NCBI GenBank assembly: GCA_963739745.1
Contig: CAVUCJ010000010.1
Coordinates: forward strand, 35,983-99,982
Origin: an uncultured beta proteobacterium
GTDB taxonomy: Bacteria; Pseudomonadota; Gammaproteobacteria; Burkholderiales; Casimicrobiaceae
Direction: 5' to 3'
DNA: 64,000 bases
The number at the start of each line of letters is the position of its first letter. Positions within the stretch are counted from its first letter, which is position 1. The notes beneath the pieces are model-generated. The model was not told the origin of the DNA. It was given only the letters and a program-made list of their open reading frames with translations, and did no database searches. This document shows, one piece after another, positions 20,612 to 61,953 of this stretch. The position numbers were made by a program, and so were the translations under genes.

Positions 20612-20994
20612 TGGCCGCCCGCTCGGTTTTCGACCTCGACCAGGCGCCGCATCGCCCGGTCGATCGGGATGCGGATCACGCCCGCCGTCCGGTCGAGCCA
20701 ACGGTACTCGTCCAGCAGGCGGCGCTTCTCGGTCCGAAGCGCTTGCAGGTTCTCGGCGGGCCGCGGTTCGAGCGCCGGGCCTGTGACCGCCGGAGGGCGC
20801 TGCGCCTGCGGTCGCGCCGGACCGCGGTCGAGCCAGTCGACCAGCCCGCGACCCAGCCACGCCGACGCGAGGCCGACCAGGATCAGCGCCGCCACGAGAC
20901 CCAGCGCCGCGATCGTCAGGCGCGTCGCGTCGACGGCGTCGGCCTGGTAGCCGCGCGCGCCGCGCGCCGTCGGGGTCGGATCGGGGTCAGCCAT
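20608..20994 (-). CDS. ActG-like small single-TM subunit of the ACIII cluster
   Basis: One TM helix plus YRWLDRTAGVIRIPIDRAM; lies between actF and SCO. Confidence 0.6.
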   Translation of the reverse strand: MADPDPTPTARGARGYQADAVDATRLTIAALGLVAALILVGLASAWLGRGLVDWLDRGPARPQAQRPPAVTGPALEPRPAENLQALRTEKRRLLDEYRWLDRTAGVIRIPIDRAMRRLVEVENRAGGQ

Positions 20995-22842: not shown

Positions 22843-22846
22843 GGGC

Positions 22847-24743: not shown

Positions 24744-24797
24744 CGGCGTCTCCGCGTGCGCGCGGCAGGCACTTCGTCGTGCATCGTCCGGTGCGCA

Positions 24798-27740: not shown

Positions 27741-27743
27741 GGC

Positions 27744-28397: not shown

Positions 28398-28481
28398 GAT
28401 GTTGGTCTCCGCCGTCGGCGCCGAGCAAACCGGTGCGCCCGGCCTTCGCGCGAGTCTGCCGCGGGGCACGGCCCGCGGCGC

Positions 28482-29738: not shown

Positions 29739-29743
29739 CCTGG

Positions 29744-31507: not shown

Positions 31508-32226
31508 CAGCTTTCCGCCGCGAGCTTACGGCCGTCGCGGCCGAGGATTCCGACGGGCGGGAGCGCATAGCGCCTGTTGTATTGCTCGATCTCCGCCACA
31601 TAGTCGTAGCGCGGACCGGGAAAGCCGATCATGTTCCAGCCGATGAAATCGCGGTTGCCGCCGTACATCGGATCCGCAAGAAAGCCTTCGACCGTGTTCT
31701 GCAATAGCATCTCGAACCACGTCTTCGCCGGTGCGCTCGCCAGCTCGACTTCGCCGCTCTCGAGACCGGCAAGCACCTTGTCCTGCGCGCCGGCGGCGAG
31801 ATCGGAAAAGCGCTTGCTCTGTTGCGTCGATGCGCAATAGGCGTCGAGCTCCCGAATGGCCGTGCGATAGAGCTGTGCCGGCGTGAGCTTCAGCTGATAG
31901 CCCTGCTCGTCGGTACCCTCGGGCCATGGCCCCTGCAAGTACCAGGTCTCGGCGCGTCCGTAGGGGCCAGCAAGTTGGTGGTCGATGAACACGGTTACCG
32001 CGGCTTCCCTGGCGCCGGGGCCGAGATCGTCGGCAGGAATCAGCCGGGAGACCGCGGCGTCGATGCAACGCCACTCCGACTCAGTGAAAAACAGGCGGGC
32101 GGGAGTGGCGTCGGCGGCAGAGCCAGCGACGTCGGCGGAGTCACGTACCTTGGCGCAACCGGCGACCCACTGAACCGGGACAGCAGAAGCGGCAATGGTC
32201 AACAGTCGCCGGCGACGGGAATCCAT
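31507..32226 (-). CDS. Gluconate 2-dehydrogenase subunit 3 (gamma)-like protein
   Basis: Twin-Arg signal SRRRRLL; SRLIP.DDLGPGA and EGFLADPMYGGNRD motifs. Confidence 0.88.
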   Translation of the reverse strand: MDSRRRRLLTIAASAVPVQWVAGCAKVRDSADVAGSAADATPARLFFTESEWRCIDAAVSRLIPADDLGPGAREAAVTVFIDHQLAGPYGRAETWYLQGPWPEGTDEQGYQLKLTPAQLYRTAIRELDAYCASTQQSKRFSDLAAGAQDKVLAGLESGEVELASAPAKTWFEMLLQNTVEGFLADPMYGGNRDFIGWNMIGFPGPRYDYVAEIEQYNRRYALPPVGILGRDGRKLAAES

Positions 32227-32446: not shown

Positions 32447-32669
32447 CAGTCAACGCATGCCCTTCGGCCATGATGATTTGCCCGTGACATTGTCGCTGGC
32501 GGCGCATTGCGTATGCGCGAATTCGGGCGGGTTTTTCCCGAATCGTTGCATTTCATGCCATCGTCGTAGGACGACGGCCGACACGCCCTTGCAACGATGG
32601 CCTACAGCGAACGTGCCGTGCGGGCACGCCACTGCCGCTGCCGCGAAGTTCAACAATGGTGCGGCGAGG

Positions 32670-37834: not shown

Positions 37835-37872
37835 GACGATCGCGGCGCGCGCAACGTGTTTGCCCGGGGCAT

Positions 37873-37888
37873 GTAGGTGGGCGCCTAC
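37873..37888. promoter_or_regulatory. Palindromic operator GTAGGT-GGGC-GCCTAC
   Basis: 92 bp upstream of DUF3309; GATAGT at 37934 (61 bp). Confidence 0.6.
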
Positions 37889-37979
37889 GCGCGATGCAGC
37901 GCATCACCGATGGAGCCCGATCTCGGTCCGGCCGATAGTGGCGGCGAAATCCGGCGACCACGGATAGGAAGGAGCCACT

Positions 37980-38135
37980 ATGCTCGGCACAATTCTTCTA
38001 ATTGTCCTGATTCTCGCATTGATCGGCGCCCTGCCGGCGTGGCCCTACAGCCGCGGTTGGGGCTATTATCCCAGCGGCTTGGCCGGCGTGATCGTCCTGA
38101 TCCTGGTGGTCCTCCTGCTGATGGGAAGAATCTGA
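37980..38135 (+). CDS. DUF3309 small membrane protein (51 aa)
   Basis: MLGTILLIVLILALIGALPAWPYSRGWGYYPSG; AAGGAG RBS. Confidence 0.9.
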   Translation: MLGTILLIVLILALIGALPAWPYSRGWGYYPSGLAGVIVLILVVLLLMGRI

Positions 38136-38729: not shown

Positions 38730-39174
38730 CGCAAACAAGTACGCCAAGTTCGTAGCGATGATCGGAGTGTCGACCGTAGCGATGCTGGGCCTCATATACC
38801 TCAACACTTACGGTCTGAATCATGTGTTCTTCAGCAAGACGCGGGCGTACTGGCTCTCGTGATGGGAGCGGCGATGTCCGTAATCGTGCTGGGGTTCAAG
38901 CTCAACAATGTTCGACGACGCTGCGGTTAATTTCGCGGTCCTGGATGTCAGCGCCGTGGTATTTGCGCTGGCGCTCTCGCTCGTCCGCAGCCAGGAGACC
39001 GTCGAGGACGTTTCCTGAATGAAGCCATGATCCGCACCGAAGCGAACAGACCAGCGAACGCGACACATCACCGATCCGCGCGTCCGCAAGCTCGCCGACG
39101 GTATCATCGAGACGCAACGCCGGGAGATCGCGGAGATGAAATCGTTGATTTCGGATCTGGAAGCCAGGCGCTAG
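38730..39174 (+). pseudogene. Degraded DUF305-family gene, copy 1
   Basis: KYAKFVAMIGVST..YLNTY.L.HVFFS.TRAY and ITDPRVRKLADGIIETQRREIAEMK; frameshifts and an internal TGA. Confidence 0.75.
38758..39024 (+). repeat. 267-bp direct repeat, copy 1
   Basis: Identical to 40600-40866 except one C/T. Confidence 0.9.
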
Positions 39175-40262
39175 TGTCCTGAGTCTGAAATGCGATTACA
39201 GAATCTGGCAACGCTGGCGAGGATCTCGTCCGCGGTCTTGGTCCAAACGAACGGTTTCGGATCTTCGTTGTAGATGTTCAAATACGAGCGGATGGCCTGT
39301 TCGAGTTCTCGGGTGCTGCGATGAGCGCCGCGCTTGATCTGGCGTGTGGTCAGCAGCGCGAAGAAGCGCTCGACCAGATTGAGCCAGGATGCTGAGGTTG
39401 GTGTGAAGTGCACGCGAAAGCGCGGGTGGCGCGCAAACCAAGCCTTGACCGAGGGCGTCTTGTGGGTGCCGTAGTTATCGAGAATCAGATGGATATCCAG
39501 CGTGGCCGGAACGTTAGCCTCGATGGTCCGCAGAAACGTCAGGAACTCTTTGCTGCGATGGCGCCGATGCAATTCGCCGATGACTTTGCCGGAAGCCAAA
39601 TCCAAGGCCGCAAACAGGCTCGTCGTGCCATGACGCTTGTAATCATGAGTGCGTCGCTCCGCCATGCCCGGTGCCAACGGCAACAGCGGCTGGGTCCGAT
39701 CCAAGGCTTGAATCTGGCTCTTCTCGTCCACGCACAGCACCATCGCCTTGGTCGGGGGATTCAGGTACAGCCCCACGATGTCGCGCACCTTGTCGATGAA
39801 CAGCGGGTCGGTCGACAGCTTGAAGGTCTCGACCCGATGCGGCTGCAGCCCGAAGGCGCGCCAGGCGCGGCTCACCGTGCTCTGCGACACCCCGAGCTTG
39901 GTGGCCAACAGCCGCGTACTCCAATGGCTCGCTTGGCGCGGCCGCTCATTGAGGGTAGTCGCGATCAGCTGCTCAATTCTCGCGTCATCAAGCTTGCGCG
40001 GCGCGCCAGGCCGCGGCTCATCGAGCAGCCCATCGAGCCGCTGCTCCAAGAACCGGCGGCGCCATTTGCCAACCGTCTGGCGCGTGACGCGGCAACGCTG
40101 TGCCACCTCGCTGTTGTTCGCCCCTTGCGCGCAGGCCAGCACGATGCGCGAACGCAACGCCAGCGCTTGCGAGGTCTTATGTCGCCGCGTCCACTCGACC
40201 AGCTGGTTGTTCTCTTGCATGGTCAATTTCAACTCAACAAGCTGGGGTCCGCTGCGCATCAT
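39171..40262 (-). CDS. IS630 transposase
   Basis: HTH; [22 protein letters not shown] and [12 protein letters not shown] motifs; ends in SDSGH*. Confidence 0.93.
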
Positions 40263-40337
40263 TCCTCTCCCGCCGGTCAACACTACCGTAAGACAGGAGA
40301 GAGAATAATTTGTTCACTTATTTACGACTCAGGACAC
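39174..40337 (-). mobile_element. IS630-family insertion sequence (1164 bp)
   Basis: Terminal IR GTGTCCTGAGTC (16/18 when extended); TA duplicated at 39172-39173 and 40338-40339; CTAG target. Confidence 0.92.
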
Positions 40338-41000: not shown

Positions 41001-41130
41001 GCATTCGTCGGAGATCTTCCCACACGAAATTCAACCGACTTCGGATGCCGGAGGCGGCTCGTGCCGGCGAGACTTGCACCAGGCGATCGGATTTGCGATT
41101 CGCCACCCACAACCTGACATGGAGATTCAA

Positions 41131-41634
41131 ATGGACAAGAACAGAGCAATACATTGTGCGACTGCCATTTCACTTGCGCTGGCGCTTTCGACTGCTTACG
41201 CAACGGGTGACTCCAAGACCTCGCCTAACGCGACTAATTCGAACGGCACCGAGGCGTCCAAACCGATGACAGGCAAGGAGAAGGCCACGGCGATTGGCGC
41301 TACGACTGGTGGCGTTGCGGGAGCAGTGGTCGGTGGACCTGTAGGCGCGGTTGTCGGCGCAGGCATCGGCGCTTACGTGGGCCACGAGGGCACGGATGCG
41401 TCGGGCAAGGTCACCAGCACTGATTCGCCGGACAAGGTGGCCAGCAACAGTGATTCGACGGTGCGCAGTGCGCAGGCCGCGCTGAACGACCGTGGCTATG
41501 ATGCGGGCCCGGTCGACGGAGTGTGGGGTCCCAACACGCAAGGCGCCGTTCGTCGCTTCCAGGCGGACCGCGGCCTTACTCAGAGTGGGATGCTCGACGG
41601 CGAAACCATCGCAGCGCTAGACATCAACCGCTGA
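41131..41634 (+). CDS. Secreted glycine-zipper plus peptidoglycan-binding-domain protein
   Basis: Signal peptide; GGVAGAVVGGPVGA; AQAALNDRGYDAGPVDGVWGPNT..AVRRFQ; GGAGA RBS. Confidence 0.85.
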   Translation: MDKNRAIHCATAISLALALSTAYATGDSKTSPNATNSNGTEASKPMTGKEKATAIGATTGGVAGAVVGGPVGAVVGAGIGAYVGHEGTDASGKVTSTDSPDKVASNSDSTVRSAQAALNDRGYDAGPVDGVWGPNTQGAVRRFQADRGLTQSGMLDGETIAALDINR

Positions 41635-42609
41635 TCGTTCGTCCAGCGACGGGGGCGTGACGGGTGCACCCTCCGTCGCGGGCGACGCACGCGCATTCGT
41701 CCGGCCACCGGCGCGCCGTTTAGAATCCGATACGCGTGCGCGACCGTAGCTAAGTGGGCCACATTGACCACTTCGCAGCAGAAGTCTTCCCATGAGGGCG
41801 ATCGCGAACAATCGAATCTTGGATTGTCCCAACCGATTCTTGTAGCGCCCAGGACGTTGGCAGATGCACTCAAATGGCCCAAGTATCAACTGCCCCTCAC
41901 CGAGGAGACTGCGCATTTACCCTAAGTCGACGGCGCCGCATCGGGATCGTCGACAGACGGCAAAACGTCAACGGCGCACCGACATCGCGATCGATGGCTC
42001 CATAGCGACACCTGAACGGGTTCCGGCCGTAGGACAGGGCGCAAATCTATCGCTCGGTCGCGCCGCACAGATTATGTTCTACATAGCTGATCATCGTAGT
42101 TCTTCAGCGATTTTAGCAGTTGCCACTACCCTGCGAAGCCGCGACTCGTGTACGAAAAGTTCGTGGTGTGCAAATGCCTGGGCTCGGAGTACAGGGTTTT
42201 GACCAGGCGCTGCGCGCGGCATTCGACCCTCGTTCGAACAGCGTTTCTTTTCTGCCGAAGTGGCAATTGACGAACACATGACTGTTCGCACCGCCCGCGA
42301 TCCTCCGGTGCGAAGGCGTGGGCAATCCGAAAACGGCGATCCCGCGGCATCGCGCCCCAGATCCTGCGCGACAGCTCCTTAGACGGGTCCGGATCCCGAT
42401 GCGGTGATAGCCCTGAGCGCACTCGCTGGATCAAGCCGAATGCTGCCATGATTGCGCGTCAGTCGGGGCGAACCTGCAGTTGGCGATCGCCGCTATTCGC
42501 GCGGGAGTCACCTACCTGTGCCGGCAGGTGTGGCACCTGCAAGGCGAGAGGCTCTGATTACGATTCTGAACATTGTAGGACCAGGCTATGATGTGCGCAG
42601 TGAGCGTAC

Positions 42610-42625
42610 GTAGGACAAGTCCGAC
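42610..42625. promoter_or_regulatory. Perfect-consensus operator GTAGGA-CAAG-TCCGAC
   Basis: 88 bp upstream of the sigma54 activator; TACGAT at 42671 (61 bp); extra half-site at 42575. Confidence 0.7.
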
Positions 42626-42712
42626 AGCCGTTTCCACAATGCGCCGATGCGGGTTTCGTATTGTCCCCACTACGATGGGCGCCATACGAAGAATCGTTTC
42701 GAGGGTGAGGCC

Positions 42713-43738
42713 ATGAACAACGAATCGACCGGGAACATCGTATCCCTGCCTTTCCTGGCCACGATACGAGCGGCATCCGCACCGGCGCGGGGGCACTTCG
42801 GACTATTATTCGGGGGCTCTGCCGTCATGCAGGAGGTCTACCGGAAGATCGAGAAGGTCGCGCCGACATTGGCAACCGTGCTCGTGACCGGCGAATCCGG
42901 CAGCGGAAAGGAAGTCGTGGCGCGCTCGATTCATGAACTGAGCGACCGCGCCCGGATGCCTTTCGTGCCCGTCAATTGTGGCGCAATTCCCGGCACGCTG
43001 ATCGAGGCGGAGCTGTTCGGCTACGAAAAGGGCGCATTCACAGGAGCGGCAAAGATGCATCGCGGATGCTTCGAGCGCGCTTGCGGTGGCACGCTCTTCC
43101 TCGACGAAATCACCGAAATGGCGCCGGAGATGCAGGTGCGCCTGCTCCGGATTCTCGAAAGCGGGCGCTTCGCGCGCGTTGGTGGGGAGGAGGAAATAAC
43201 CACGCGGGTCCGGGTGATCGCTGCAACCAACCGTGATCCGAGGCAGGCGGTACAGGACGGGCAGCTGCGAGAGGACCTCATGTATCGCCTTGCCGTATTC
43301 CCGATCGCCCTGCCGTCGTTGCGCGAGCGCGATGGCGACGTCGAACTGCTGGCCGAATACTTTCTCCGGCAACACAACGAAAGCGAAGGTACGGCGCTTG
43401 CATTTTCGCGGCAGGCCATCGCGACCCTGCGCACGTATCACTGGCCGGGAAACGTGAGGGAACTAAAGAATGCGGTACAGCGCGCGTTCATCCTGGCGGA
43501 CAGTGAAGTCGAGATGAACTTCGCCATCGTCGACTCCACGGTGCCGACCGGCGATTGCCTGCGCGTACCGGTAGGCACGCCGCTCGCCGACATCGAGCGG
43601 CAGGCAATCCATGCGACGCTCGACCTGTGCGAGGGAAACAAGCGACGCTGCGCGGAGATGCTCGGCGTCAGCCTCAAGACGCTCTATAACCGCCTCGCTG
43701 AATACCAATCCGTCGCTGCAAGGATCGCCACGATCTAG
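42713..43738 (+). CDS. sigma54-dependent enhancer-binding protein with no N-terminal sensory domain
   Basis: GESGSGKE Walker A, GAFTGA, LFLDEI, WPGNVREL and Fis-type HTH. Confidence 0.93.
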   Translation: MNNESTGNIVSLPFLATIRAASAPARGHFGLLFGGSAVMQEVYRKIEKVAPTLATVLVTGESGSGKEVVARSIHELSDRARMPFVPVNCGAIPGTLIEAELFGYEKGAFTGAAKMHRGCFERACGGTLFLDEITEMAPEMQVRLLRILESGRFARVGGEEEITTRVRVIAATNRDPRQAVQDGQLREDLMYRLAVFPIALPSLRERDGDVELLAEYFLRQHNESEGTALAFSRQAIATLRTYHWPGNVRELKNAVQRAFILADSEVEMNFAIVDSTVPTGDCLRVPVGTPLADIERQAIHATLDLCEGNKRRCAEMLGVSLKTLYNRLAEYQSVAARIATI

Positions 43739-43776
43739 TCCCCGCCAGTCCCCCATGACCCTAGGACCCCACGACC

Positions 43777-44409
43777 ATGATCCGCATCCTGATTGCCGAC
43801 GATCACGCTATCGTGCGCGCAGGTCTCACGCAATTCATCTCGGACCAACCGGACATGCAGATTGCCGGTGAAGCCGCGACCGGCAGCGAAGCGATCGCGT
43901 TGATCCGGGCCCACGAATTCGACGTCGTCCTGCTCGATATCTCGATGCCGGACAAGAACGGCATCGATACGCTCAAGACGGTAAAGCAGGTTCGGCCGGA
44001 ATTGCCGGTCCTGATGCTATCTGGGTACGCCGAGGATCAATATGCGGTAAACCTTCTGCGCGCCGGCGCCGCAGGCTACCTCAACAAGGAGGCCGCTTCC
44101 ACGCAACTGGTCGCAGCGATTCGCACGGTGGTGCGCGGCCGCAAGTTCGTGAGCCCGGCGCTGGCGCAGATCCTGGCCGACGGCGTTACCGGCGACGCCG
44201 GTTGCCCGCTGCATGGTGAGTTATCGCAGCGTGAATTCCAGATCTTCTGCAAGATCGCCGCCGGGTCTGCGGTGTCCAAAATCGCCGATGAATTGCACCT
44301 TTCGGTCAAGACGGTCAGCACGTACCGGACGCGGGTGCTCGAAAAAATGGGAATGAAGTCGAACGCGGATCTCACATACTACGCCATTAAGAATGGGCTG
44401 ATCGATTGA
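43777..44409 (+). CDS. NarL/GacA(UvrY)-type response regulator (REC plus LuxR HTH)
   Basis: IADDH, LLDISMP and LSVKTVSTYRTR motifs. Confidence 0.93.
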   Translation: MIRILIADDHAIVRAGLTQFISDQPDMQIAGEAATGSEAIALIRAHEFDVVLLDISMPDKNGIDTLKTVKQVRPELPVLMLSGYAEDQYAVNLLRAGAAGYLNKEAASTQLVAAIRTVVRGRKFVSPALAQILADGVTGDAGCPLHGELSQREFQIFCKIAAGSAVSKIADELHLSVKTVSTYRTRVLEKMGMKSNADLTYYAIKNGLID

Positions 44410-44580
44410 TCGCCCGGCAGACGGTTGGCCGGCAACCGCCTTCATAGACGCATGCACAGCAAGAAATCGGACAAACGCTGACATCCAAGCGGAGGCGCCG
44501 GTGCTACCGTGGGTCACGTATCGACGCGTTTCGCATCGTGGTCGCAAAGACATTCCATTCCGACGCCAATGCGCATTCAA

Positions 44581-45033
44581 ATGACCAACTCTCAATCCGG
44601 CAGCGACGCTCCCCAGGCTTTCGGGCAGCTGGGAAGCTCCACCAAGCTGCGTGTGGTGATCGTCGAGGATTCGCCGATCATTCGCGCGCGCCTGGCCGAA
44701 TCGTTGGCCGAGATTCCGAACGTCGAGATCGTCGGCGAGGCGACGACAGAAGCGGACGCACTCGCGCTCATGCGTCACTCGAGGTGGGATGCCGCGGTGC
44801 TCGATCTGCAGCTCAAGCAAGGGACCGGGCTGGGTGTGCTGAAGGCGCTGTCCGAGAATGCGCGGCCGGCGAGCACCAAGATCATCGTCTTCACCAACTA
44901 TTCCTTTCCCCAGTACCGCGATCGAAGCCTCCTGCTGGGCGCCGACTATTTCTTCGACAAGGCGCGCGAATTAAACCGTGTTCGCGAGGTGCTGCAGAAA
45001 CTCGCCGCCGGCGGCGCGGCGGCTTCGCATTGA
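44581..45033 (+). CDS. Stand-alone receiver-domain protein
   Basis: VEDS, VLDLQL (phospho-Asp), FTN and FFDK; start could be 44569. Confidence 0.88.
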   Translation: MTNSQSGSDAPQAFGQLGSSTKLRVVIVEDSPIIRARLAESLAEIPNVEIVGEATTEADALALMRHSRWDAAVLDLQLKQGTGLGVLKALSENARPASTKIIVFTNYSFPQYRDRSLLLGADYFFDKARELNRVREVLQKLAAGGAAASH

Positions 45034-45145
45034 CCTTGGTGGTCGTGCGAGGGGTGCTGCTGCTGCGATGTACGTCCCATCGGTGCCTGGCGGCGGAATG
45101 CGTTATCGTCGACAGGGGCCGACTTCGCCGAGCCCTGATCGCGGG

Positions 45146-45161
45146 GTTGGACAAACCCTAC
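45146..45161. promoter_or_regulatory. Operator copy GTTGGA-CAAA-CCCTAC
   Basis: 2 mismatches; upstream of the entericidin gene. Confidence 0.5.
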
Positions 45162-45252
45162 GTTAGGCGCAGGACCGGGGGTGCGGCGCGTGGAAGCTGA
45201 CGGATCCGGCCGGATGGCGGCTGCAACCATTTGAATCGCACGGAATATTGGC

Positions 45253-45268
45253 AGGCATGCTCCGTGCA
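45253..45268 (+). promoter_or_regulatory. Candidate sigma54 promoter AGGCATGCTCCGTGCA
   Basis: GG-N10-GC, about 60 bp upstream of ATG 45327. Confidence 0.4.
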
Positions 45269-45326
45269 GAATGAAGCGCGCGGTTGTCTATCCCATTTGA
45301 ACCTCGAACGACCGGAAGTAACGCAG

Positions 45327-45469
45327 ATGAAAACTGTGCTCGTTGCGCTGTTGGGCCTGTCGATAATTTCGTCATCCGCATATGTAACACCGTCGAAGGG
45401 ATGGGCCAGGATGTGAAAGCCACTGACAGCGCCGTCGAAAGGGCGGCCGACAAGACGAAGCCCAACTAG
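45327..45469 (+). pseudogene. Entericidin A/B-type lipoprotein, frameshifted
   Basis: Signal MKTVLVALLGLSIISSSA and mature CNTVEGMGQDVK are in different frames (gca ta tgt aac). Confidence 0.75.
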
Positions 45470-45595
45470 ATCTGCCGCGCGGAATGAATGCTCCGGGGAA
45501 GCGTTTCAGCGTTCCTGGGCCCCCGTGACCGTTCGACCACGTCTCGCGTGACGGCGGGACCCGTTGTGCGTTTCAATTGATAGCACAGGTGAAAA

Positions 45596-46114
45596 ATGAC
45601 ATTGACCGATGAAGTCAGACTGCTCCTGGAGGCCCCGACGATGAATGCAAGGGATGTGCGAACACTGCTGCGGCAGGATCATGAGGAGGCGCTGCAGCTC
45701 GCACGCGACATGTACGAATCGGAGAGCGGCGAAGAACGGCGTGCGCTGCTGCGTCAATTGCGGCCGGCGCTAATCGCGCATTCACGGGCGGAAGAGAAGG
45801 AAGTTTACGACGCGCTGATACGCGGCAAGGTCTCCGTTGAAGCGCAGGAAATCGTCTATGAAGGGTACGTGGAGCATGGCGTGCTCGACGACCTGCTCGA
45901 GAAGCTGGCGCGCAGTCGGAAGTCTGAGTCGGAAGAGTGGAAGGCGCATGCCCGGGTGTTGCTCAGATTCCTGGAGCGCCACATCGAGGAAGAGCAGGTA
46001 CGGATGTTCGACGCGCTGGTCGAATTCTTCGACGACGAACAGCGCGAAACTCTGGGACGCCGGTTCGGCGCGGTCAAGGCACGCTGGGCTGCGATGCGGG
46101 CCAAGGCGGCCTGA
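45596..46114 (+). CDS. Hemerythrin/HHE cation-binding domain protein
   Basis: LRQDHEE, AHSRAEEKEVY, EHGVLD and RHIEEEQ motifs. Confidence 0.85.
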   Translation: MTLTDEVRLLLEAPTMNARDVRTLLRQDHEEALQLARDMYESESGEERRALLRQLRPALIAHSRAEEKEVYDALIRGKVSVEAQEIVYEGYVEHGVLDDLLEKLARSRKSESEEWKAHARVLLRFLERHIEEEQVRMFDALVEFFDDEQRETLGRRFGAVKARWAAMRAKAA

Positions 46115-46194
46115 TCAGCAAGTCGCTTGCAGCATGTCGCCCAAGTGAATACGGGCCGGGTGCGTCCCGGCCCGAATCATGTCCGGGGCGCGGG

Positions 46195-46557
46195 CTAGCG
46201 CAGCAGACGCCCGGCGAAATAGCCAAGCACCATCGCTCCCGCTACCGAAGCAAGCGGGCGGGCGCGAACAAATCCGGCGCATGACTCCTTCACTTCGGTC
46301 GATCGGGCCGCAACCTGGCGGGAATTTTGGGTCGCCCAATCGACGGCCGGTGCTGCGCTGTCGGCCACCTTGTCGATCGTGCGATGTGCGGTTGACGACG
46401 CGTGTTCGATCGCCGGCGTCGCCTTGGTGGCGAGCCGATCGACGACCTGGTGCGCGCGGTCGGCAATGCCTGACAACGGGTTGCGATTGCCGGAGGATGA
46501 CGGCAAGGCCGGTGCCGGTGGATTGACGCTGGAGGTGCTGGTCGCGGATGTATTCAT
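46195..46557 (-). CDS. ElaB/YqjD(DUF883)-like tail-anchored protein
   Basis: Helical repeats ending in FVRARPLASVAGAMVLGYFAGRLLR; GGAGA RBS. Confidence 0.7.
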   Translation of the reverse strand: MNTSATSTSSVNPPAPALPSSSGNRNPLSGIADRAHQVVDRLATKATPAIEHASSTAHRTIDKVADSAAPAVDWATQNSRQVAARSTEVKESCAGFVRARPLASVAGAMVLGYFAGRLLR

Positions 46558-46690
46558 GGCGGAGTCTCCTGGAGTCGGATTCGCTTGCTCGTGCCGAATT
46601 GCCGAGCGCAATTGCATTGTCCTGCGTTTCGCCGGGTACAGAGAAGCCGCGACTCGCCCATTCGGCGCGTCGGTGCGGCGGCAATACTGT

Positions 46691-46706
46691 GTCGGAATCG
46701 GCTGAC
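46691..46706. promoter_or_regulatory. Operator copy (T)GTCGGA-ATCG-GCTGAC(A)
   Basis: 1 mismatch; 134 bp upstream of 46557 (minus strand). Confidence 0.55.
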
Positions 46707-46749
46707 AACACGCCGCGACTTCCCTGAACGCAGGCATTCCGCACGCTCG

Positions 46750-47739
46750 CTACTGGTGTCTGCCCTCGTCGTTCAGCCTGGCGATCAACTTTGCGCTGCG
46801 AAGGAAGTCCGCCTCGACGTAGTCCTTGGCAGCGGAGCCCGACAGACCGAGAAAATTGAGCCCGGCGCCACGCAAGCCTTGAGCGTAACGGGCTTCGGTG
46901 AGCAGCACCGCCACTGCGGACGCGAACCGCGAATACGTCGTTGGAGAGCCCCTGGGCAACACGAGTCCGAGCCAGCCGTCGAAGGACTGATGCCACAACT
47001 CGCCAAAGGACGGCACCTCGGGCAGTGAGTCCACCCTCATGGCCGAAGTGACCGCGATGATGCGCTGACCGGTGCGCGGCAACTTGACTAGGGCGCTGGG
47101 GAGCCCGTCGAAGAGCATGTCCAGATCGCCCTGGGCCAGCATCTCATAACCGACATCCGGGGTGTCGAGCGTCACGTGCGAGATGTGCGCGTTCTGCTCG
47201 AGGCGCAGATAGGCACCTGCCAGGTGGCCCGCGGTCCCGGTACCGTAGGTCCCGTATTTGCTCGGGGGATCGGCGGTGCGTGCGGCCGCCAGCCATTCCT
47301 CGACGGTCGTGTGGTTGGACCGGGTCGAAAGCACCATCGCATTGGGGTAGGAGCCTAGGATGGCGAGCCAGTCGAAGTCCTCGATCGGGTTAAATTGTGC
47401 ATTGCGCGAGAGCAACTTGCCTGCGACGAGCGAAGAACTGTCAGTTAGCCCGAGGACGGAACCGTCGCGGGGAGCCGCGGCCATTGCATTGATGGCGTTG
47501 ACGCCGCCATTGCCCTCGACATTGCGGACCCGGACCGGCACCGCCAGGATTCCGGAAAGCGCGTCGGCGACCAGCCGCCCGATCGCGTCGCTTGTGTCGC
47601 CAGGAGGCGCGGGTACGATCAGTGTGAGGGCCACCTGCGACGCGGGCTGCGCATCCGCAAGACGTCCGGCGGCAAGGGCTGCTATCGCGGCCAGCAACCG
47701 CCGGCGGCGTAGCGAAAACGAGGACGCAATGGGGGACAC
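46750..47739 (-). CDS. Bug/TctC tripartite tricarboxylate transporter substrate-binding protein
   Basis: RRRRLL Tat-like signal; IVPAPPG.TSD.IGR, V.NVEGNGG and GTAGHL motifs; GTG start assumed. Confidence 0.85.
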   Translation of the reverse strand: MSPIASSFSLRRRRLLAAIAALAAGRLADAQPASQVALTLIVPAPPGDTSDAIGRLVADALSGILAVPVRVRNVEGNGGVNAINAMAAAPRDGSVLGLTDSSSLVAGKLLSRNAQFNPIEDFDWLAILGSYPNAMVLSTRSNHTTVEEWLAAARTADPPSKYGTYGTGTAGHLAGAYLRLEQNAHISHVTLDTPDVGYEMLAQGDLDMLFDGLPSALVKLPRTGQRIIAVTSAMRVDSLPEVPSFGELWHQSFDGWLGLVLPRGSPTTYSRFASAVAVLLTEARYAQGLRGAGLNFLGLSGSAAKDYVEADFLRSAKLIARLNDEGRHQ

Positions 47740-48036
47740 GACGATATCCTGCCTGCGGCTCGCGTGGGGGGTGGAGGGATTGTACGTTGGTGAACTGGTT
47801 CCAACAACTCGCGCGCGGCGAACGCGGCTTACGCCGCCTGCCGCGGCCGGTGATCGCCGATCCCACCCCCGACCACAGCGGATGGCGTTCCTACATCGCA
47901 GCATGAAGTAGGACGAACATCGACAAGCGTATTGTCAATGCGCTGATTGGACGGGGGCGACGATTGGGGCAAGGTCGTGTGCGTGTGATCCCTGAGGCGT
48001 TGTGGTCACGGCGGCCCCCAAAAAGAGGTAGCACCG

Positions 48037-48204
48037 ATGCTTCGATTCGCGGTTATATTCTTCATCATTGCCATCGTCGCGGCGCTGTTCGGATTCGGAG
48101 GCGTTGCGGCGGGCGCCACCGAGATTGCGAAGATACTGTTCTTCGTGTTCCTGGTCCTGTTCATCGTTTCGCTCGTTGCCGGCCTGCTGAAGCGCGGGCC
48201 CTGA
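48037..48204 (+). CDS. DUF1328 small membrane protein (55 aa)
   Basis: [36 protein letters not shown]; not in the ORF track. Confidence 0.9.
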
Positions 48205-48254
48205 CGCTGCGAGGGACGTATCCCCTCATGCTGCGAGGGTCGTCTCGTCCGAGA

Positions 48255-49658
48255 CTAGGACGTGACCGGTGGAGTCGTGGGTGATGTCGCCGTCGTCGGC
48301 CGCGCGCGGATGGGAACGTTGACCTCGATGATGGTGCCACGCTCGACGCCCCGGGAGATAGCGAACTCGCCCTCCAACGCACGCACGCGCTGGCGCATTC
48401 CGGCGATGCCGTGTGAAAGTTTGTTGTCCTGCGCAACATCCGGAATCCCGATGCCGTCGTCCTCGATAAGCAGCGTCACCGTGTCCGCGGTCAGGCCGAG
48501 ATCGACGCTGACGTGACTGGCGCGCGCGTACTTGACGATGTTGGTCAGCGCCTCCTGCAAGATCCGATAGAGGGCAATCGACACCTGCGGCGCGATCACG
48601 CTGTCGTCCTTCGGTGTCGCGATCACGCAATCAAGCCCGGCGCGGTCGCAGATTTCGTGAACCTGCCAGTCGAGCGCCGCGGACAGTCCCAGGTTGTCGA
48701 GGAGCGTGGGGCGTAGCTCCTCGATGATGCGGCGCTTGATCTGGACTCCGTCATCCAGCGCCTTGACCGCCCGTTCGAGCTTGGCGGAGAACTCAGGATC
48801 GCGCTTGCGCATGCGCTCCTCGACCCATGCAACGTCCATCTTGGCGCTGACCAGGATGCCGCCCAGCTCGTCGTGAAGGTCCCGGGCGAGCTTCGACTTC
48901 TCGTCCTCGCGCACGACCTGCAGATGATTAGACAGCTCGGTCAATGCCGCAGTGCGCTCCTCGACGACCACTTCGAGCCGTCGCTTGTCCTCCGCTATGC
49001 TGCGCCGGCGCGCCTCGCGCTCTCGCGCGTCGTGCCGCGCGAGCAGCCACACGATGAGCAGCAATGCCACGGTGAACGACGTCATGATCTGCATGCTGAG
49101 GCGTGCGAATGCGATATCCGCCGCCCACTGGTTGGCCGCCGTCTCCAGCCGCCGTTGACTCGTCATGACCATGTCTGCGACCTGCGTGCGGATGTCATCC
49201 ATTGCCCGCTGGCCGATGCCGGTGTCAACCAGCGCCTGTGCGGCCTGCATGCCGTCGCGCTTGAACAGCGCGATCGCTGCCTCGAGCTCGGAGAGCTTCT
49301 TGCCGACGAGCTGACTGACACGCGCAAATCCGGTGCGCTGAGTGGGTGTTCCGCTGGCGACGAGCAATTCGCGCAACCGGCCCAGCGATTCGTCGACCTT
49401 GGGCAGCGCGCTCAGGTATGGTGCCAGGTACTCAGACTTACCCGTAAGTAGGTAGCCCCGCTCGCCGGTTTCGGCATCGACGATCAGTGCGAGCACTTCA
49501 CGCAGCGTCGCCTGCAGGTTCAACGTCACCGCCATCTGCCGATTGGCAAGCTCGAGGCGGCGGTAGCCGAGTTCGGCGTAAACAGCGATCGCGATTGACG
49601 CGATGATCCCCAGGAGCAGCGGGGCGACCACCTTCAACGGGAGTGGCGATTTCTTCAC
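48255..49658 (-). CDS. CHASE3-domain sensor histidine kinase (HisKA_3)
   Basis: TM-CHASE3 (DAETGERGYLLTG)-TM, LARDLHDELG, QEALTNIVKY and DDGIG motifs. Confidence 0.92.
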   Translation of the reverse strand: MKKSPLPLKVVAPLLLGIIASIAIAVYAELGYRRLELANRQMAVTLNLQATLREVLALIVDAETGERGYLLTGKSEYLAPYLSALPKVDESLGRLRELLVASGTPTQRTGFARVSQLVGKKLSELEAAIALFKRDGMQAAQALVDTGIGQRAMDDIRTQVADMVMTSQRRLETAANQWAADIAFARLSMQIMTSFTVALLLIVWLLARHDAREREARRRSIAEDKRRLEVVVEERTAALTELSNHLQVVREDEKSKLARDLHDELGGILVSAKMDVAWVEERMRKRDPEFSAKLERAVKALDDGVQIKRRIIEELRPTLLDNLGLSAALDWQVHEICDRAGLDCVIATPKDDSVIAPQVSIALYRILQEALTNIVKYARASHVSVDLGLTADTVTLLIEDDGIGIPDVAQDNKLSHGIAGMRQRVRALEGEFAISRGVERGTIIEVNVPIRARPTTATSPTTPPVTS

Positions 49659-49817: not shown

Positions 49818-50030
49818 CTACCGGCCCCGCGCGGAACGGCGCGGTACCTGCGACGAGGCGATGCTCGCAAGTTGCGGCTCGATTGCGCCGCCTTCGTTTT
49901 CCCAGGTCTCGACCTGTCTGCGCGGTCCGCGCGTCCTCCATGCGGCGCGTCGCTCCAGCCATTGCTTGACGCCCCAGGAAACAGCCGTCGTGACGGCTGC
50001 GACCAGCGTGGCGGTGACGATGCGATTCAT
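49818..50030 (-). CDS. Small hypothetical protein with a WENEGG motif
   Basis: N-terminal hydrophobic helix; GGAGGG RBS. Confidence 0.6.
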   Translation of the reverse strand: MNRIVTATLVAAVTTAVSWGVKQWLERRAAWRTRGPRRQVETWENEGGAIEPQLASIASSQVPRRSARGR

Positions 50031-50051
50031 GGCGCCCTCCAGTGTAACGCG

Positions 50052-50390
50052 CTAACGCCTGGCTGGTGCGTCGAGCGAAGTCGACGAGTGGTTGTTGGCC
50101 TGCCCGGGCTTGGGCATCGACTTGGACTCCTCGCTCGGTGTCATGGCCTCATGGGGCTGGGTCGCGGGGCTGTCTTTGGCGGTTTCGGCGGCAGTGCTGT
50201 CCTTGGGAGACTCGGCGGCGCCGCTTCCCGCCGTCGAGGGCATCTGCGACGGTGTGCTCGGTGCGGCGACCACCGGTGGTGTGGCGGGAGGAGACGTCAC
50301 CTGGGCCGCTTGCCTTGACTTGTCTTCGCCGCAGGCGCCGAGCATGAGGCAGGTGGTGAGGGATGCAGCGATCATTAGAATGTACTTCAT
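50052..50390 (-). CDS. Small low-complexity lipoprotein
   Basis: MKYILMIAASLTTCLMLGAC lipobox; CAGGAG RBS. Confidence 0.7.
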   Translation of the reverse strand: MKYILMIAASLTTCLMLGACGEDKSRQAAQVTSPPATPPVVAAPSTPSQMPSTAGSGAAESPKDSTAAETAKDSPATQPHEAMTPSEESKSMPKPGQANNHSSTSLDAPARR

Positions 50391-50506
50391 CGGGTTCTCC
50401 TGGTTGTCGTCGCCGCCGACAGCCCGCCTGGAGCTATCGCGAACGGTTGGCTGCAATCCTGGAATTTCTGGGCAGCCGAGCCCATCCGTGCGTGTCGGAA
50501 GCGGCT

Positions 50507-50522
50507 GTAGGACCATTCCGAC
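50507..50522. promoter_or_regulatory. Perfect-consensus operator GTAGGA-CCAT-TCCGAC
   Basis: Divergent intergenic region; minus-strand CAGGAT at 50461 (61 bp); extra half-site GTCGGA at 50494. Confidence 0.7.
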
Positions 50523-50638
50523 CACCGTGCGCGAAACTGCAAGTGGAAGGTTGCACAATTGCGACCCAGGTTTCGGCACCGATACCGATGTCGGGGCCAA
50601 GACGCTGAATCCGAAGCAAATTCACATCCGTTTCGCGA

Positions 50639-50654
50639 TGGCATGGCGCGTGCA
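50639..50654 (+). promoter_or_regulatory. Candidate sigma54 promoter TGGCATGGCGCGTGCA
   Basis: GG-N10-GC, about 60 bp upstream of DUF1328 and the bacterioferritin-like gene. Confidence 0.55.
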
Positions 50655-50711: not shown

Positions 50712-50873
50712 ATGCTTTATTACGCCGCGCTCTTTCTCGTCATCGCGCTCGTCGCTGCGCTGTTCGGATTCGGCGGTATCGCCGCGGGCGCCGCCGGCAT
50801 CGCGAAGATCCTGTTTTTCATATTCCTCGCCGTCGCCGTGGTCACATTCCTGGTGTCATTGGCGCGAAGATAG
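50712..50873 (+). CDS. DUF1328 small membrane protein (53 aa)
   Basis: [36 protein letters not shown]; CAGGAG RBS. Confidence 0.9.
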
Positions 50874-50932: not shown

Positions 50933-51508
50933 ATGATTACTACGAAATTGGTCCGCGAGGATGAGTCGCCCGCGTCGACGCCAATTCTGTCTGACGTCCA
51001 GACCCTGCGAAAACGCGCCCGCCAGCATATCGAGGCGGGCGCCGTGACTCCGGGATATGGCGCGAACGCAAGGCAAGTCTGCCAAGTATTGAACGATGCG
51101 CTCGCAACCGAAATAGTTTGTGTGCTGCGGTACAAGCGCCATTACTTCATGGCGCAGGGAATCACCTCCGAATCAGTGAAGGCAGAATTCCTGGCCCATG
51201 CTGGTGAGGAGCAGGCGCACGCAGATGAGATCGCCGGACGGATCGTCCAGCTGGGCGGCGAGCCCGATTTCGACCCGAGCAGTCTCGCCGCCCGCAGCCA
51301 CGCCGAGTACGTGACGGGTTCGACGCTGCGCGACATGATCCGCGAAGACCTGATCGCCGAACGTATCGCGATCGAGAGCTATCGCGAAATCATCGCCTGG
51401 CTCGCCGGCAGGGATTCGACCACGCGCAAGATGATGGAGGGCATCCTCGCAGTCGAGGAGGAGCACGCCGAGGAGATGGCGTCGTTGCTGGCGCGATTGA
51501 AGGAATAG
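50933..51508 (+). CDS. Bacterioferritin/ferritin-like protein
   Basis: LATEIVCVLRY, EEQAHAD..AGRIVQLGG, EDLIAER and EEEHA motifs. Confidence 0.88.
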   Translation: MITTKLVREDESPASTPILSDVQTLRKRARQHIEAGAVTPGYGANARQVCQVLNDALATEIVCVLRYKRHYFMAQGITSESVKAEFLAHAGEEQAHADEIAGRIVQLGGEPDFDPSSLAARSHAEYVTGSTLRDMIREDLIAERIAIESYREIIAWLAGRDSTTRKMMEGILAVEEEHAEEMASLLARLKE

Positions 51509-53901: not shown

Positions 53902-54159
53902 TCACGCGGTCTTCCACCAACGCAGGTCCGGCCCGGAGGGCTCGGGCACTCGCGTCCGAAAACCCTGCGCGAAGCGGATTGCCACCGCGACCACCAACAG
54001 CGTCAACGAGCCATACAGCAACAAGTCGTGGGCAGGAACCGGACTGTCAAATCCCGCGAACGTGACCGCCTTGACCGGAGTGGCGGCGGTCGACAGCGCG
54101 CCCAACAGCGTGCATGCGAGGCTGGTCCGTAGGGCATCGAGTTTGCGTGGGGCGTTCAT
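53902..54159 (-). CDS. Small hypothetical membrane protein
   Basis: Signal-like N-terminus plus one TM helix; GGAGGG RBS. Confidence 0.55.
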   Translation of the reverse strand: MNAPRKLDALRTSLACTLLGALSTAATPVKAVTFAGFDSPVPAHDLLLYGSLTLLVVAVAIRFAQGFRTRVPEPSGPDLRWWKTA

Positions 54160-54243
54160 CGCTTGTCCCTCCGTGGGGTTGATGATGAGTGCACTCTAGA
54201 CGGTGAGCGGAGATTGCCCGATCGGCGTCCTTTCGATTCTGGT

Positions 54244-54259
54244 GTCGGACGACTCCGAC
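54244..54259. promoter_or_regulatory. Perfect palindromic operator (T)GTCGGA-CGAC-TCCGAC(A)
   Basis: 7-4-7 inverted repeat; minus-strand TAGAGT at 54198 (61 bp). Confidence 0.72.
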
Positions 54260-54514
54260 AAGCCACCCGCGGCGCGGCCAGGCCGTCCGCGTTGCGCAAT
54301 GCGGCGCGATGTTGGAATTGCATCACGGAATTCGCGTGGCGCCGCGCCGGAGAGCCAACGACGTCAGCGCCCGCCGACAGGAGCTTCGGACTGCAACCGA
54401 TGGCGGTGATTTCCGAATTGACCGATCCTGCAATTGCAAGTCACGCATGCTGCGTCGCGCGTGGAAAGCGCGGGCGTTCGTGCAACCGTGAAATCGGACA
54501 TTTTGGAGAATTCG

Positions 54515-54715
54515 ATGCAAACCGAACCCATGCAGACCGATGGCAAAACGATGATGACCGGCAAGTGTGCGCACGCCGGATGTGCATGCATCGTCGATTC
54601 AGACGAGCGCTATTGCAGCGAATCGTGTCGTGCGCAGGATGCGGGCACCGACGCTACCCACGGCCGATCCTGTGGATGTGGGCACGACGCGTGCACGTCG
54701 GGCCGCGGATCATAG
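54515..54715 (+). CDS. Metallothionein-like Cys/His-rich protein
   Basis: KCAHAGCAC...YCSESC...SCGCGHDAC (8 Cys, 3 His); GGAG RBS; start could be 54530 or 54551. Confidence 0.7.
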   Translation: MQTEPMQTDGKTMMTGKCAHAGCACIVDSDERYCSESCRAQDAGTDATHGRSCGCGHDACTSGRGS

Positions 54716-61500: not shown

Positions 61501-61953
61501 CAGTGGACGAAGGTCGAGAAAGCCACGACCCCGCTGCGACGCTGGGAGCGCAATCTGGACCGACCCGTTTCCTTGGTGGTGATGCCGGTTTTCGCCCTGG
61601 CCAATGCCGGCATCCCGATCGATCTGCAGGCGCTGTCCGGGCTGTGGTCTGACCATCTGACGCTGGGAATCGTCATCGGACTGCTGCTCGGCAAGGTGTC
61701 CGGGATCACGCTGATGGCTTGGCTCAGCCTGCGATTCGGAATCGGACGGTTGTCGACGGGTGTTCATTTGCGCCATATCGCGGGTATCGGACTGCTTGGG
61801 GGCATGGGCTTCACGATGTCGATATTCATCGCCAACCTGGGCTTTTCGACCGTGCCCGAAACACTCGTCGCGGCAAAGACAGCAGTCTTGCTCGCTTCTG
61901 TGCTTGCCGGGTTCTCAGGCTATCTATGGCTGCGCTATCAGGAGCATTTCTGA
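61501..61953 (+). pseudogene. nhaA: 5'-truncated NhaA Na+/H+ antiporter fragment
   Basis: TPLRRWE..., VMPVFALANAGI, GLLLGK..GI and GGMGFTMSIFIA.L.F; in-frame TGA directly upstream, no N-terminal part. Confidence 0.8.

Follow-up and report, generated by a model that had tools for sequence, protein, structure and literature searches.

A candidate two-component circuit with a sensor-less sigma-54 activator and two promoter classes in a stress gene island of an uncultured Casimicrobiaceae bacterium

The DNA analysed here (hereafter the window) is a stretch of 64,000 nucleotides from the genome of an uncultured beta proteobacterium of the Casimicrobiaceae (GCA_963739745.1, contig CAVUCJ010000010.1, positions 35,983 to 99,982). 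Its G+C content is about 63%, and the proteins nearest to those it encodes stem from uncultured Burkholderiales, especially Casimicrobiaceae, of soil metagenomes. [quoted passage not shown] Pfam identified all four as intact and located where an original prediction, made from the letters of the window, had placed them; NCBIfam named none of them as an equivalog. Together with an 18-bp dyad that stands before the EBP gene and at further promoters, here called Box 1, they may make up a two-component circuit that amplifies itself and drives a local stress regulon by means of two promoter classes.

The EBP is a protein of 341 amino acid residues (Pfam: Sigma54_activat, AAA_lid_14 and HTH_8), and its start fits homologues of the same length. 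It consists of an AAA+ domain (PF00158 at 1.3e-67) with an intact GAFTGA motif and a Fis-type helix-turn-helix (HTH) domain (PF02954 at 1.8e-12, residues 313-353); its closest matches in the PDB are the cores of NtrC1, ZraR and NifA. The identity to homologues of 341-345 aa is 70-94%. Among 23 aligned homologues (70-82% identity, 334-362 aa) the motifs GESGSGKE, LFLDE and GAFTGA as well as the HTH are invariant. No sensory domain (REC, GAF, PAS or V4R) was found in the EBP. Only about 32 residues without a Pfam match precede the AAA+ core, and the architecture is therefore that of the PspF/HrpS type. A sensor domain is likewise missing from every relative and homologue examined, in agreement with the original prediction of a sensor-less activator with intact signatures. 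In NCBIfam the EBP stayed below the cutoff of every named EBP model, PspF included. Ahead of its AAA+ core the EBP has a conserved N-terminal peptide of some 25 residues (NIVSLPF..AASAPA.GRFG), several positions of which are conserved to at least 90%; this peptide differs between the beta and gamma clades.

For comparison, the EBP alignment was scanned against one genome per GTDB species, and the proteins of the window were mapped onto the 80 loci returned. Loci are labelled L001, L002 and so on; L081 is a 2.26-Mb contig of a metagenome-assembled genome (MAG) with precomputed Pfam calls.

The regulator gene starts 38 nt after the EBP stop codon, as had been predicted. Its product carries a receiver (PF00072 at 1e-29) and a GerE domain (PF00196 at 5e-16; helix LSVKTVSTYRTR), and the DD, D54, S/T and K residues of the receiver are present in the translation. 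VraR, DevR and NarL are the nearest structures. The best NCBIfam match is the UvrY/SirA/GacA model NF007018 (178.4 bits, cutoff 280), hence the description as GacA/UvrY-like. Across 30 loci the recognition helix, LSVKT(V/I)STYR(T/S)R, does not vary, and the regulator is better conserved than the EBP encoded just upstream (93% as compared with 78% identity to L001). Regulator homologues without an EBP neighbour were sought among the database matches; the top 120 are all at least 84% identical, and no distant regulators were reached among them. REC has intact acceptor residues and a start at 44581 that fits a 150-aa orthologue in L081. Since it resembles the receivers of NarL, DesR and DevR (Pfam; phmmer against the PDB), it is a plausible second substrate of the HisKA_3 kinase. 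Lastly, the kinase has the architecture TM-CHASE3-TM-HisKA_3-HATPase_c (PF05227 at 1.7e-33, PF07730 at 6.1e-10 and PF02518 at 2.4e-12; H-box DLHDELGG), with MctS, UhpB and NarX as the nearest NCBIfam models and no equivalog reached. Pfam detected neither a receiver nor an Hpt domain in it.

The order EBP-regulator-REC, hereafter the triad, is syntenic in 30 of the 80 mapped loci, that is, in all 30 orthologous loci with enough flanking sequence. These belong to two orders and comprise Casimicrobiaceae and unnamed Betaproteobacteria on the one hand and Steroidobacteraceae and unnamed Gammaproteobacteria on the other. A CHASE3 kinase is encoded within a few kb of the triad in 18 of the 30, mostly convergent with REC, and several other loci end at a contig edge. 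In line with the co-occurrence of genes and motif that had been proposed as a check, Box 1 stands before the EBP gene in all 30 loci. Recurrent neighbours of the triad are genes for ferritin-like proteins (11 loci), BON proteins (8) and DUF1328 proteins (at least 8); PRC-barrel, PLD/VTT and superoxide dismutase (SOD) genes are rarer. In L081 the order is EBP, regulator, REC, entericidin, AI-2E, CsbD, DUF1328, the minus-strand kinase with two small genes, a DUF1328-like gene and ferritin. The comparative arrangement supports the four genes as an evolutionary unit, and phosphotransfer from the kinase to the regulator and REC is predicted from the pairing rule of HisKA_3 kinases with NarL-type receivers and from the conserved adjacency in 18 of 30 loci. 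Three EBP homologues of 56-58% identity (L008, L009 and L018, the last from Steroidobacter gossypii) were set aside as paralogues: they lie in an exopolysaccharide/ECF-sigma context and have neither the triad nor Box 1.

The EBP gene and the two-component genes could also be mere neighbours within an island of stress genes, with no regulatory coupling. EBP and NarL-type genes are common in Proteobacteria, and the window is a mosaic that includes an IS630 transposase, a frameshifted gene and a gene fragment. We nevertheless consider this very improbable in view of the synteny in 30 of 30 loci across two orders, the shared cis-element and the approximately sixfold enrichment of sigma-54 promoters over loci of other EBPs, both described below.

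The Box 1 operator of the EBP gene, CGTAGGACAAGTCCGACA (42609-42626), is an 18-bp dyad of 6-6-6 layout that lies 87 nt before the EBP ATG. It had been announced as a perfect operator in a feature starting at base 42610, the first base of GTAGGACAAGTCCGAC. The operator is real and conserved; its perfection did not stand, as it fits 11 of the 12 positions of the consensus TGTMGG-N6/7-CCKACA, i.e. TGT(A/C)GG-N6 or N7-CC(T/G)ACA, and taken as a strict palindrome has one mismatch. A box of at least 10/12 is located less than 400 bp upstream of the EBP gene in all 30 triad loci. In the 622 kb made up of the window and 30 related loci, 61 boxes of at least 11/12 were counted, as compared with 1-10 per shuffle in ten Markov shuffles. 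The density was 8.8 per 100 kb in triad loci and 1.5-2.2 per 100 kb in non-triad loci centred on other EBPs. Within the window a looser pattern occurs 7 times (1.3 expected). The best box, a 12/12 match (TGTCGGACGACTCCGACA; 54243-54260, minus strand), is followed by 19 nt and GAT and stands 84 nt before an 85-aa open reading frame (ORF; 53902-54159). In a second beta subgroup a perfect Box 1 occurs only before the EBP gene. Because the operator before it is conserved across two proteobacterial orders, the EBP-regulator operon is predicted to be autoregulated, a part of the original proposal that is well supported.

The most likely binder of Box 1 is the regulator, an assignment made with moderate confidence. 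It follows from the layout of the GacA box and a nearly identical half-site, from the GacA-like affiliation of the regulator, from its invariant recognition helix, from its high conservation and from the -10-like element 19 nt past the box, which recalls LuxR-type class II promoters. The recognition helices were also examined as a means to separate the regulator from the EBP as box binder and were uninformative, both being invariant across clades; sequence data alone do not separate the two readings.

Other elements lie close to the operator. A perfect 7-3-7 palindrome, GCAGGTGtggCACCTGC (42524-42540), overlaps a weak sigma-54-like match, TGGCACCTGCAAGGCG, which reads toward the EBP gene (together 42524-42546, plus strand; status uncertain). 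As an operator the palindrome was rejected, being unique in the window and absent from the closest relatives; its half-sites recur in inverted order at 12001-12019. Six other beta loci possess, upstream of Box 1, a strict sigma-54 promoter directed into the EBP gene. Steroidobacteraceae show a second, usually perfect palindrome, GTGTAACGATTACAC, just before the EBP ribosome-binding site and about 25 nt before the EBP start (L012, L015, L017, L019, L021-L023, L025, L029, L032, L038 and L039), replaced by ATGCAGAAATTGCAT in one subclade (L014, L024 and L075). It may be a second operator and has no counterpart in the window. A further candidate, the 'Box 2' word TGTAA-N3-TTACA, occurs in other beta loci ahead of sigma-54 promoters and in gamma loci ahead of the EBP start; it was discarded for the window, where it occurs 4 times (3.6 expected).

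In the beta loci Box 1 is followed by exactly 19 nt and then (G/T)AT(A/G)C. When GAT or TAT was counted at each offset from 8 to 30 nt past all box-like sites, offset 19 stood out: the beta loci had 28 hits among 235 box orientations and the gamma loci 17 among 198, with about 4 at other offsets. Before the EBP operon the element is GATGCG, exactly 19 nt past the box (42646-42651, plus strand). Of the 13 Box 1-N19-GAT modules of the window, 11 are intergenic, and 10 of these stand 84-138 nt before a start codon; the exception, at 56646, lies 344 nt from the nearest called gene. The genes behind the modules are the EBP operon, a DUF1328 gene (copy a), the lipoprotein/70-aa ORF/kinase genes, the 85-aa ORF, a Cys-rich ORF, a gene for a glycine-zipper/peptidoglycan-binding protein and a DUF3309 gene. 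The module of DUF1328a consists of AGTAGGACGAACATCGACA, N19 and GAT (47907-47947, plus strand), precedes a small membrane protein identified by Pfam (48037-48204, plus strand) and recurs before DUF1328 in L081 and L001. A degenerate Box 1, AATCGGACAAACGCTGACA, followed by N19 and GCTACC (44465-44508, plus strand), is probably a separate promoter of REC; the layout recurs in L001, and L001, L002, L007 and L016 carry boxes between the genes of the regulator and REC. Two outlying members of the putative regulon, both on the plus strand, are the DUF3309 small protein (Pfam; 37980-38135, or 37872-38135 including its module) and the glycine-zipper/peptidoglycan-binding protein (41006-41634 with its module). 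A 66-aa Cys/His-rich and metallothionein-like ORF without a family match (54517-54714, plus strand) has a Box 1-like module ahead at 54362-54379.

Upstream of the kinase gene, the same strand carries a small ORF of 70 aa and the small gene of a 112-aa lipoprotein, neither with a Pfam match (49818-50390, minus strand). With the kinase they probably form one operon, and L081 and L002 are arranged alike. In L081, Box 1-N19-GAT modules occur before the EBP gene, DUF1328 and the small-protein/kinase operon.

No sigma-54 motif was found between these boxes and their genes, the EBP start included, in the window or its relatives, and the box-proximal promoter of the EBP gene is therefore not of the sigma-54 type. 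The module has its box centre near -41, a weak -10 and no -35, which is the geometry of class II activation by LuxR-type regulators. From this layout, DUF1328a, DUF3309, the glycine-zipper gene, REC and the small-protein/kinase operon would be controlled directly via Box 1, without a sigma-54 promoter.

The second promoter class was searched with a strict sigma-54 pattern, TGGCAY(G/A)-N4-(C/T/G)TGC(A/T/G). The triad loci, 558 kb in all, contained 64 such promoters, or about 11 per 100 kb; shuffles contained 3-5, and the density around other EBPs was 1.7 per 100 kb, an enrichment of about sixfold. The promoters cluster in two places: past REC at 38-256 bp, where 13 related loci have one, and upstream of the EBP gene at 250-620 bp. 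One example in the window is TGGCATGGCGCGTGCA (50639-50654, plus strand), which conforms to GG-N10-GC with TGGCAY-N5-yTGC, lies 58 nt before the ATG of DUF1328 copy b and is conserved in at least nine relatives; its equivalents precede DUF1328 or ferritin genes in L002, L004, L011, L013, L020, L027, L030, L036 and L081. DUF1328b (50712-50873) and a ferritin-like/Dps-like protein (50933-51508; both plus strand; Pfam and NCBIfam) lie behind it. The two DUF1328 copies are paralogues, 75% identical over 116 nt, with copy a behind Box 1, N19 and GAT and copy b behind the sigma-54 promoter.

Just past REC, a sigma-54-type promoter, AGGCATGCTCCGTGCA (45253-45268, plus strand), is preceded by a Box 1-like dyad, GGTTGGACAAACCCTACG (45145-45162), which ends 91 bp before it and has an equivalent in L081. 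Downstream lies a gene for an entericidin-like small lipoprotein (45327-45469, plus strand) that is frameshifted in the assembly, with the signal peptide MKTVLVALLGLSIISSSA in one frame and the mature part CNTVEGMGQDVKATDSAVERAADKTKPN in another; it is either a pseudogene or an assembly error. At the same position L081 has an intact 70-aa entericidin gene behind the sigma-54 promoter TGGCATGCGCCATGCA, and another sigma-54 promoter before CsbD. In gamma loci a divergent sigma-54 promoter precedes lipoprotein, double-BON (OsmY-like) and AI-2E family genes. The neighbours in this island are typical stress proteins (DUF1328, DUF3309, entericidin, CsbD, BON, ferritin/Dps-like, SOD). By position and promoter type, likely targets of the EBP appear to lie all around it, and the existence of a sigma-54 stress regulon there is well supported as a prediction.

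Among the sigma-54 targets named in the original prediction, only the DUF1328b-ferritin promoter, conserved in relatives, stood; those of the respiratory operon and TopIB proved weak. The respiratory operon has a good match, TGGCACGACAGATGCT, at 32253-32238, which ends 11 nt before the start codon ATG at 32226, so the mRNA would be leaderless and the site is doubtful. That ATG, with the twin-arginine signal MDSRRRRLL behind it, is the start of the first respiratory gene, not the long-ORF start at 32556. A Box 1 is located nearby (32565-32583); the N19-GAT spacing is absent there. The TopIB match, AGGCACGCTGTCTGCA at 7634-7649, is moderate and has no comparative support. The respiratory run itself (16556-32226, minus strand, about 16 kb) encodes a three-subunit GMC/gluconate-2-dehydrogenase-like enzyme, an alternative complex III (with cytochrome c7, Fe-S and NrfD subunits) and a caa3-type oxidase.

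Box 1 also occurs inside the presumed enhancers of the sigma-54 promoters. Of 67 strict promoters, 22 have a Box 1 less than 400 bp upstream, and in 16 of these 22 the box centre lies 84-125 bp from the 5' end of the promoter (84, 95, 95, 95, 104, 106, 108, 111.5, 114.5, 120.5, 123.5, 123.5, 124.5, 124.5, 125 and 125 bp). The 16 distances fit a lattice of about 10.5 bp, i.e. helical register, with the limit that some promoters are orthologous and not all distances are independent. An unbiased count of 6-mers from -30 to -200 of the sigma-54 promoters placed GTAGGA/TCCTAC first in the subgroup of the window (10 of 15 promoters as compared with 0.7 expected, p about 1e-10). In the other two groups related TGTA(A/G)N words rank first, and words of the TTGCA type come next.

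One box serves both classes. On the minus strand the Box 1 at 50506-50523 reads with N19-GAT toward the lipoprotein-kinase genes, and on the plus strand it stands 124 bp before the DUF1328b sigma-54 promoter. The dual arrangement is also present in L081 and L002, and the spacing to the sigma-54 promoter is shared by L081, L002, L004, L005 and L036 (123.5-125 bp; 111.5 bp in L036). Between this box and the promoter, TGCAA-N8-TTGCA and CAATTG form an element (50538-50561) that is a candidate second enhancer site. The box of six orthologous DUF1328b-type promoters begins between -131 and -133 (at -119 in L036); five of the six have TTGCA between -100 and -102, and L036 has it at -90. A defined EBP site of the TGCAA/TTGCA type was tried: the words are enriched, but the spacing of the dyad varies (0, 2, 6 or 8 nt), and the site is kept as a candidate.

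These positions bear on the alternative that Box 1 is the EBP's own upstream activating sequence (UAS), bound through HTH_8, and that the EBP activates sigma-54 promoters and represses overlapping promoters of other types including its own, like NtrC and PspF. The regulator would in that case have a different binding site or a post-transcriptional effect on the EBP. Such a role would account for the distances and their register, for the first rank of Box 1 half-sites among the words enriched upstream of sigma-54 promoters in each of the three clades, and for the position of the gamma box between the EBP operon and a divergent sigma-54 promoter, as at pspF-pspA. A paralogous EBP locus that lacks the regulator has the word TTCTTACAA at the UAS position, and HTH domains of the EBP family can read sites of this kind, as in TyrR-type boxes (TGTAAA-N6-TTTACA). 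On the other hand, the 6-6-6 layout and the half-site match the GacA box and the regulator is GacA-like; the -10-like element at a fixed 19 nt without a -35 resembles an activator-dependent rather than a repressed promoter; and the EBP would have to repress DUF1328a yet activate DUF1328b. Most sigma-54 promoters of the second beta subgroup, moreover, carry direct words of the ATTcTTAC type and not the Box 1 dyad, which is perfect there only before the EBP gene. On balance we regard a UAS role as a possible but rather unlikely explanation.

The same enhancers, with Box 1 phased to the sigma-54 promoter and adjoining a second conserved element, would also suit an NtrC that is split over several proteins. 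Phosphorylated REC or the Box 1-bound regulator would dock on the AAA+ ring or the N-terminal peptide of the EBP and switch its activity, by nucleating or releasing the EBP hexamer at the enhancer. Sensor-less EBPs are known to be controlled by partner proteins (PspF by PspA, HrpS by HrpV). The constant company of EBP, regulator and REC in 30 of 30 loci, the co-transcription of the first two genes and the conserved stretch of about 25 residues before the AAA+ core are in line with such a contact. The contact between EBP and receiver is, however, purely proposed, the peptide is not conserved between the beta and gamma clades, both receivers are of the NarL and not the NtrC type, and a phosphate sink explains REC more simply. 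We consider this model doubtful. Similarly tentative, and in our judgement improbable, is its extension, in which the Box 1-bound GacA-like regulator would be the phospho-switchable subunit that brings a split enhancer-binding machine to the DNA, in which it (or REC) would provide in trans the receiver function missing from the AAA+ activator, so that one phosphorylated protein licenses both promoter classes, and in which the whole would constitute a general stress response of a large group of uncultured soil Beta- and Gammaproteobacteria that relies on sigma-54 in place of a dedicated stress sigma factor.

We therefore return to the self-amplifying circuit with two promoter classes, to which we assign a probability of about 0.5. 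Its gene content, synteny and cis-elements with their positions are as observed above; the binding partners, the phosphotransfer, the signal and the direction of regulation are what we infer. The membrane CHASE3/HisKA_3 kinase would sense an extracytoplasmic or envelope cue and, by the pairing rule of these families, phosphorylate the GacA-like NarL-class regulator and probably the stand-alone REC as well. The phosphorylated regulator would bind Box 1 and, judging from box similarity and promoter geometry, act as a class II activator where the box lies 19 nt before a -10-like element. Direct targets would be the EBP-regulator operon, REC and the small-protein/kinase operon, providing positive feedback, and in addition DUF1328a, DUF3309 with an MscS-like protein, the glycine-zipper/peptidoglycan-binding protein and other small envelope stress proteins. 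The amount of the sensor-less EBP would thereby rise, and the EBP would remodel the sigma-54 holoenzyme at nearby promoters: those of the entericidin-like gene and DUF1328b-ferritin in the window, and of CsbD and lipoprotein-BON/OsmY-AI-2E in relatives. In the enhancers the regulator probably sits beside the EBP, often next to a TTGCA element, so that the circuit would be a coherent feed-forward (AND-like) loop and not a plain relay. The lone REC is most likely a phosphate sink or modulator.

The two-tier cascade of the original prediction is retained in this scheme with respect to autoregulation and the sigma-54 stress regulon. Its strict order is not: the circuit is not cleanly two-tier because Box 1 or its half-site is also the most enriched word upstream of sigma-54 promoters. 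Several stress genes, in addition, appear to be direct Box 1 targets.

Several points weigh against the proposed circuit. The -10-like elements of this lineage (GATGCG, GATTGG) are poor as sigma-70 -10 elements and have no evident -35, and the EBP promoter of the gamma loci looks different. The EBP has an intact HTH_8 domain of high conservation, yet no separate EBP site with consistent spacing could be defined. A helically phased Box 1 at enhancer distance is what would be expected of the EBP's own site, and the TTCTTACAA word of the locus without regulator stands about 125 bp before its sigma-54 promoter. As the EBP and the regulator are co-transcribed, induction of the EBP by the regulator is inseparable from autoregulation of the operon. 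Finally, the public sequencing runs that contain the window sequence are of soil DNA, with no RNA run among them.

Some features of the window stand apart from the circuit. The mosaic character mentioned above is due to the IS630-family transposase ORF (370 aa; 39171-40283, minus strand) between the respiratory/metal-efflux part and the regulatory genes, to the frameshifted entericidin-like gene and to a gene fragment, an ORF at 61573-61953 (plus strand) whose match covers no more than the final third (258-374 of 374) of the model for the Na+/H+ antiporter NhaA. A protein with a hemerythrin domain (45596-46114, plus strand) shows a weak similarity (54.6 bits, cutoff 190) to the ribosome-binding persister proteins of the PA2171 family; its gene has neither a clear Box 1 nor a clear sigma-54 promoter directly before it. 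The window sequence had no match in the plasmid database, and generic scans of it for sigma-70 promoters and terminators remained at chance level.

Full-text literature searches returned no account of this kinase-regulator-REC-EBP system, and several known systems share parts of it. Similar to PspF, the EBP consists of AAA+ and HTH only, is encoded next to its own enhancer and has an envelope-stress output. In contrast to the Psp system, control appears to come via a two-component system; the EBP scored well below the PspF models (TIGR02974, 277.8 with a cutoff of 443.55; NF008622, 224 with a cutoff of 529), and no PspA-like gene was found in the neighbourhood in the window or in L081. With GacS/GacA (BarA/UvrY) the system shares the operator layout: the GacA box TGTAAGCATTCTCTTACA, TGTAAG-N6-CTTACA, is an 18-bp 6-6-6 dyad like Box 1 (PMC4353343). 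The half-site here is, however, TGT(A/C)GG and not TGTAAG, the kinase is of the CHASE3-HisKA_3 type and not a GacS-type hybrid, and the putative targets are protein-coding stress genes and the EBP, not Rsm small RNAs. The regulator falls short of a GacA/UvrY/SirA orthologue with its 178.4 bits, and no Rfam family matched in the 40-58 kb part of the window.

The likeness to the general stress responses of PhyR-NepR-sigmaEcfG (Alphaproteobacteria), sigmaB and RpoS is one of regulon content only (DUF1328, CsbD, entericidin, BON/OsmY, Dps/ferritin-like, DUF3309, glycine-zipper, PRC-barrel, SOD). The analogy to sigmaB and PhyR-sigmaEcfG drawn in the original prediction holds in this functional sense and not in mechanism: no alternative sigma, anti-sigma or anti-anti-sigma domain, and no partner-switch sigma module, was detected among the approximately 50 window proteins scanned, and the output here uses sigma-54 together with an activator-dependent promoter class. 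In the Borrelia pathway headed by Rrp2, this EBP carries its own receiver domain. The Rrp2-RpoN-RpoS pathway resembles our case in that an EBP and sigma-54 stand atop a global adaptive or stress programme; it runs through RpoS and, as named in that source, has no NarL-type tier (PMC2940757).

The closest known design is HrpX/HrpY-HrpS, in which the genes of the two-component system and the EBP are likewise neighbours. HrpY is of the FixJ/NarL class, HrpS has no receiver domain and HrpX is a cytoplasmic PAS kinase. In Erwinia, Pantoea and Dickeya, HrpX/HrpY activates hrpS, whose product, a sigma-54 EBP, activates hrpL (PMC2494611). This precedent qualifies the novelty claimed in the original prediction: the parts are ordinary, and it is the wiring that is not previously described in the literature found. 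In the Hrp case a single sigma-54 promoter, that of hrpL, feeds an ECF sigma factor and type III secretion, whereas here many sigma-54 promoters lie directly on genes for small stress proteins, and neither ECF sigma nor type III secretion genes were found among the neighbours in the window or L081. The kinase here is of a periplasmic CHASE3 type. Further differences are the co-transcription of EBP and regulator, the constant presence of one more receiver that stands alone, and the position of the regulator's box, which lies also within the sigma-54 enhancers. The result is a testable regulatory map (one sensor and two receivers with an AAA+ activator, a box of 18/19 bp and promoters of two classes) for abundant uncultured soil lineages, namely Casimicrobiaceae-like Burkholderiales and Steroidobacteraceae. 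Small proteins of the membrane and periplasm, mostly of unknown function and found again in each general stress regulon of bacteria (DUF1328, DUF3309, CsbD, entericidin, BON and Dps-like proteins), are its predicted targets, and the cis-elements are clear enough for regulon prediction in whole MAGs and for rebuilding in a model host. If the regulator and the EBP indeed share enhancers, the locus would be a natural case of a NarL-class regulator gating sigma-54 transcription, a logic so far described only as the simple relay from HrpXY to HrpS.

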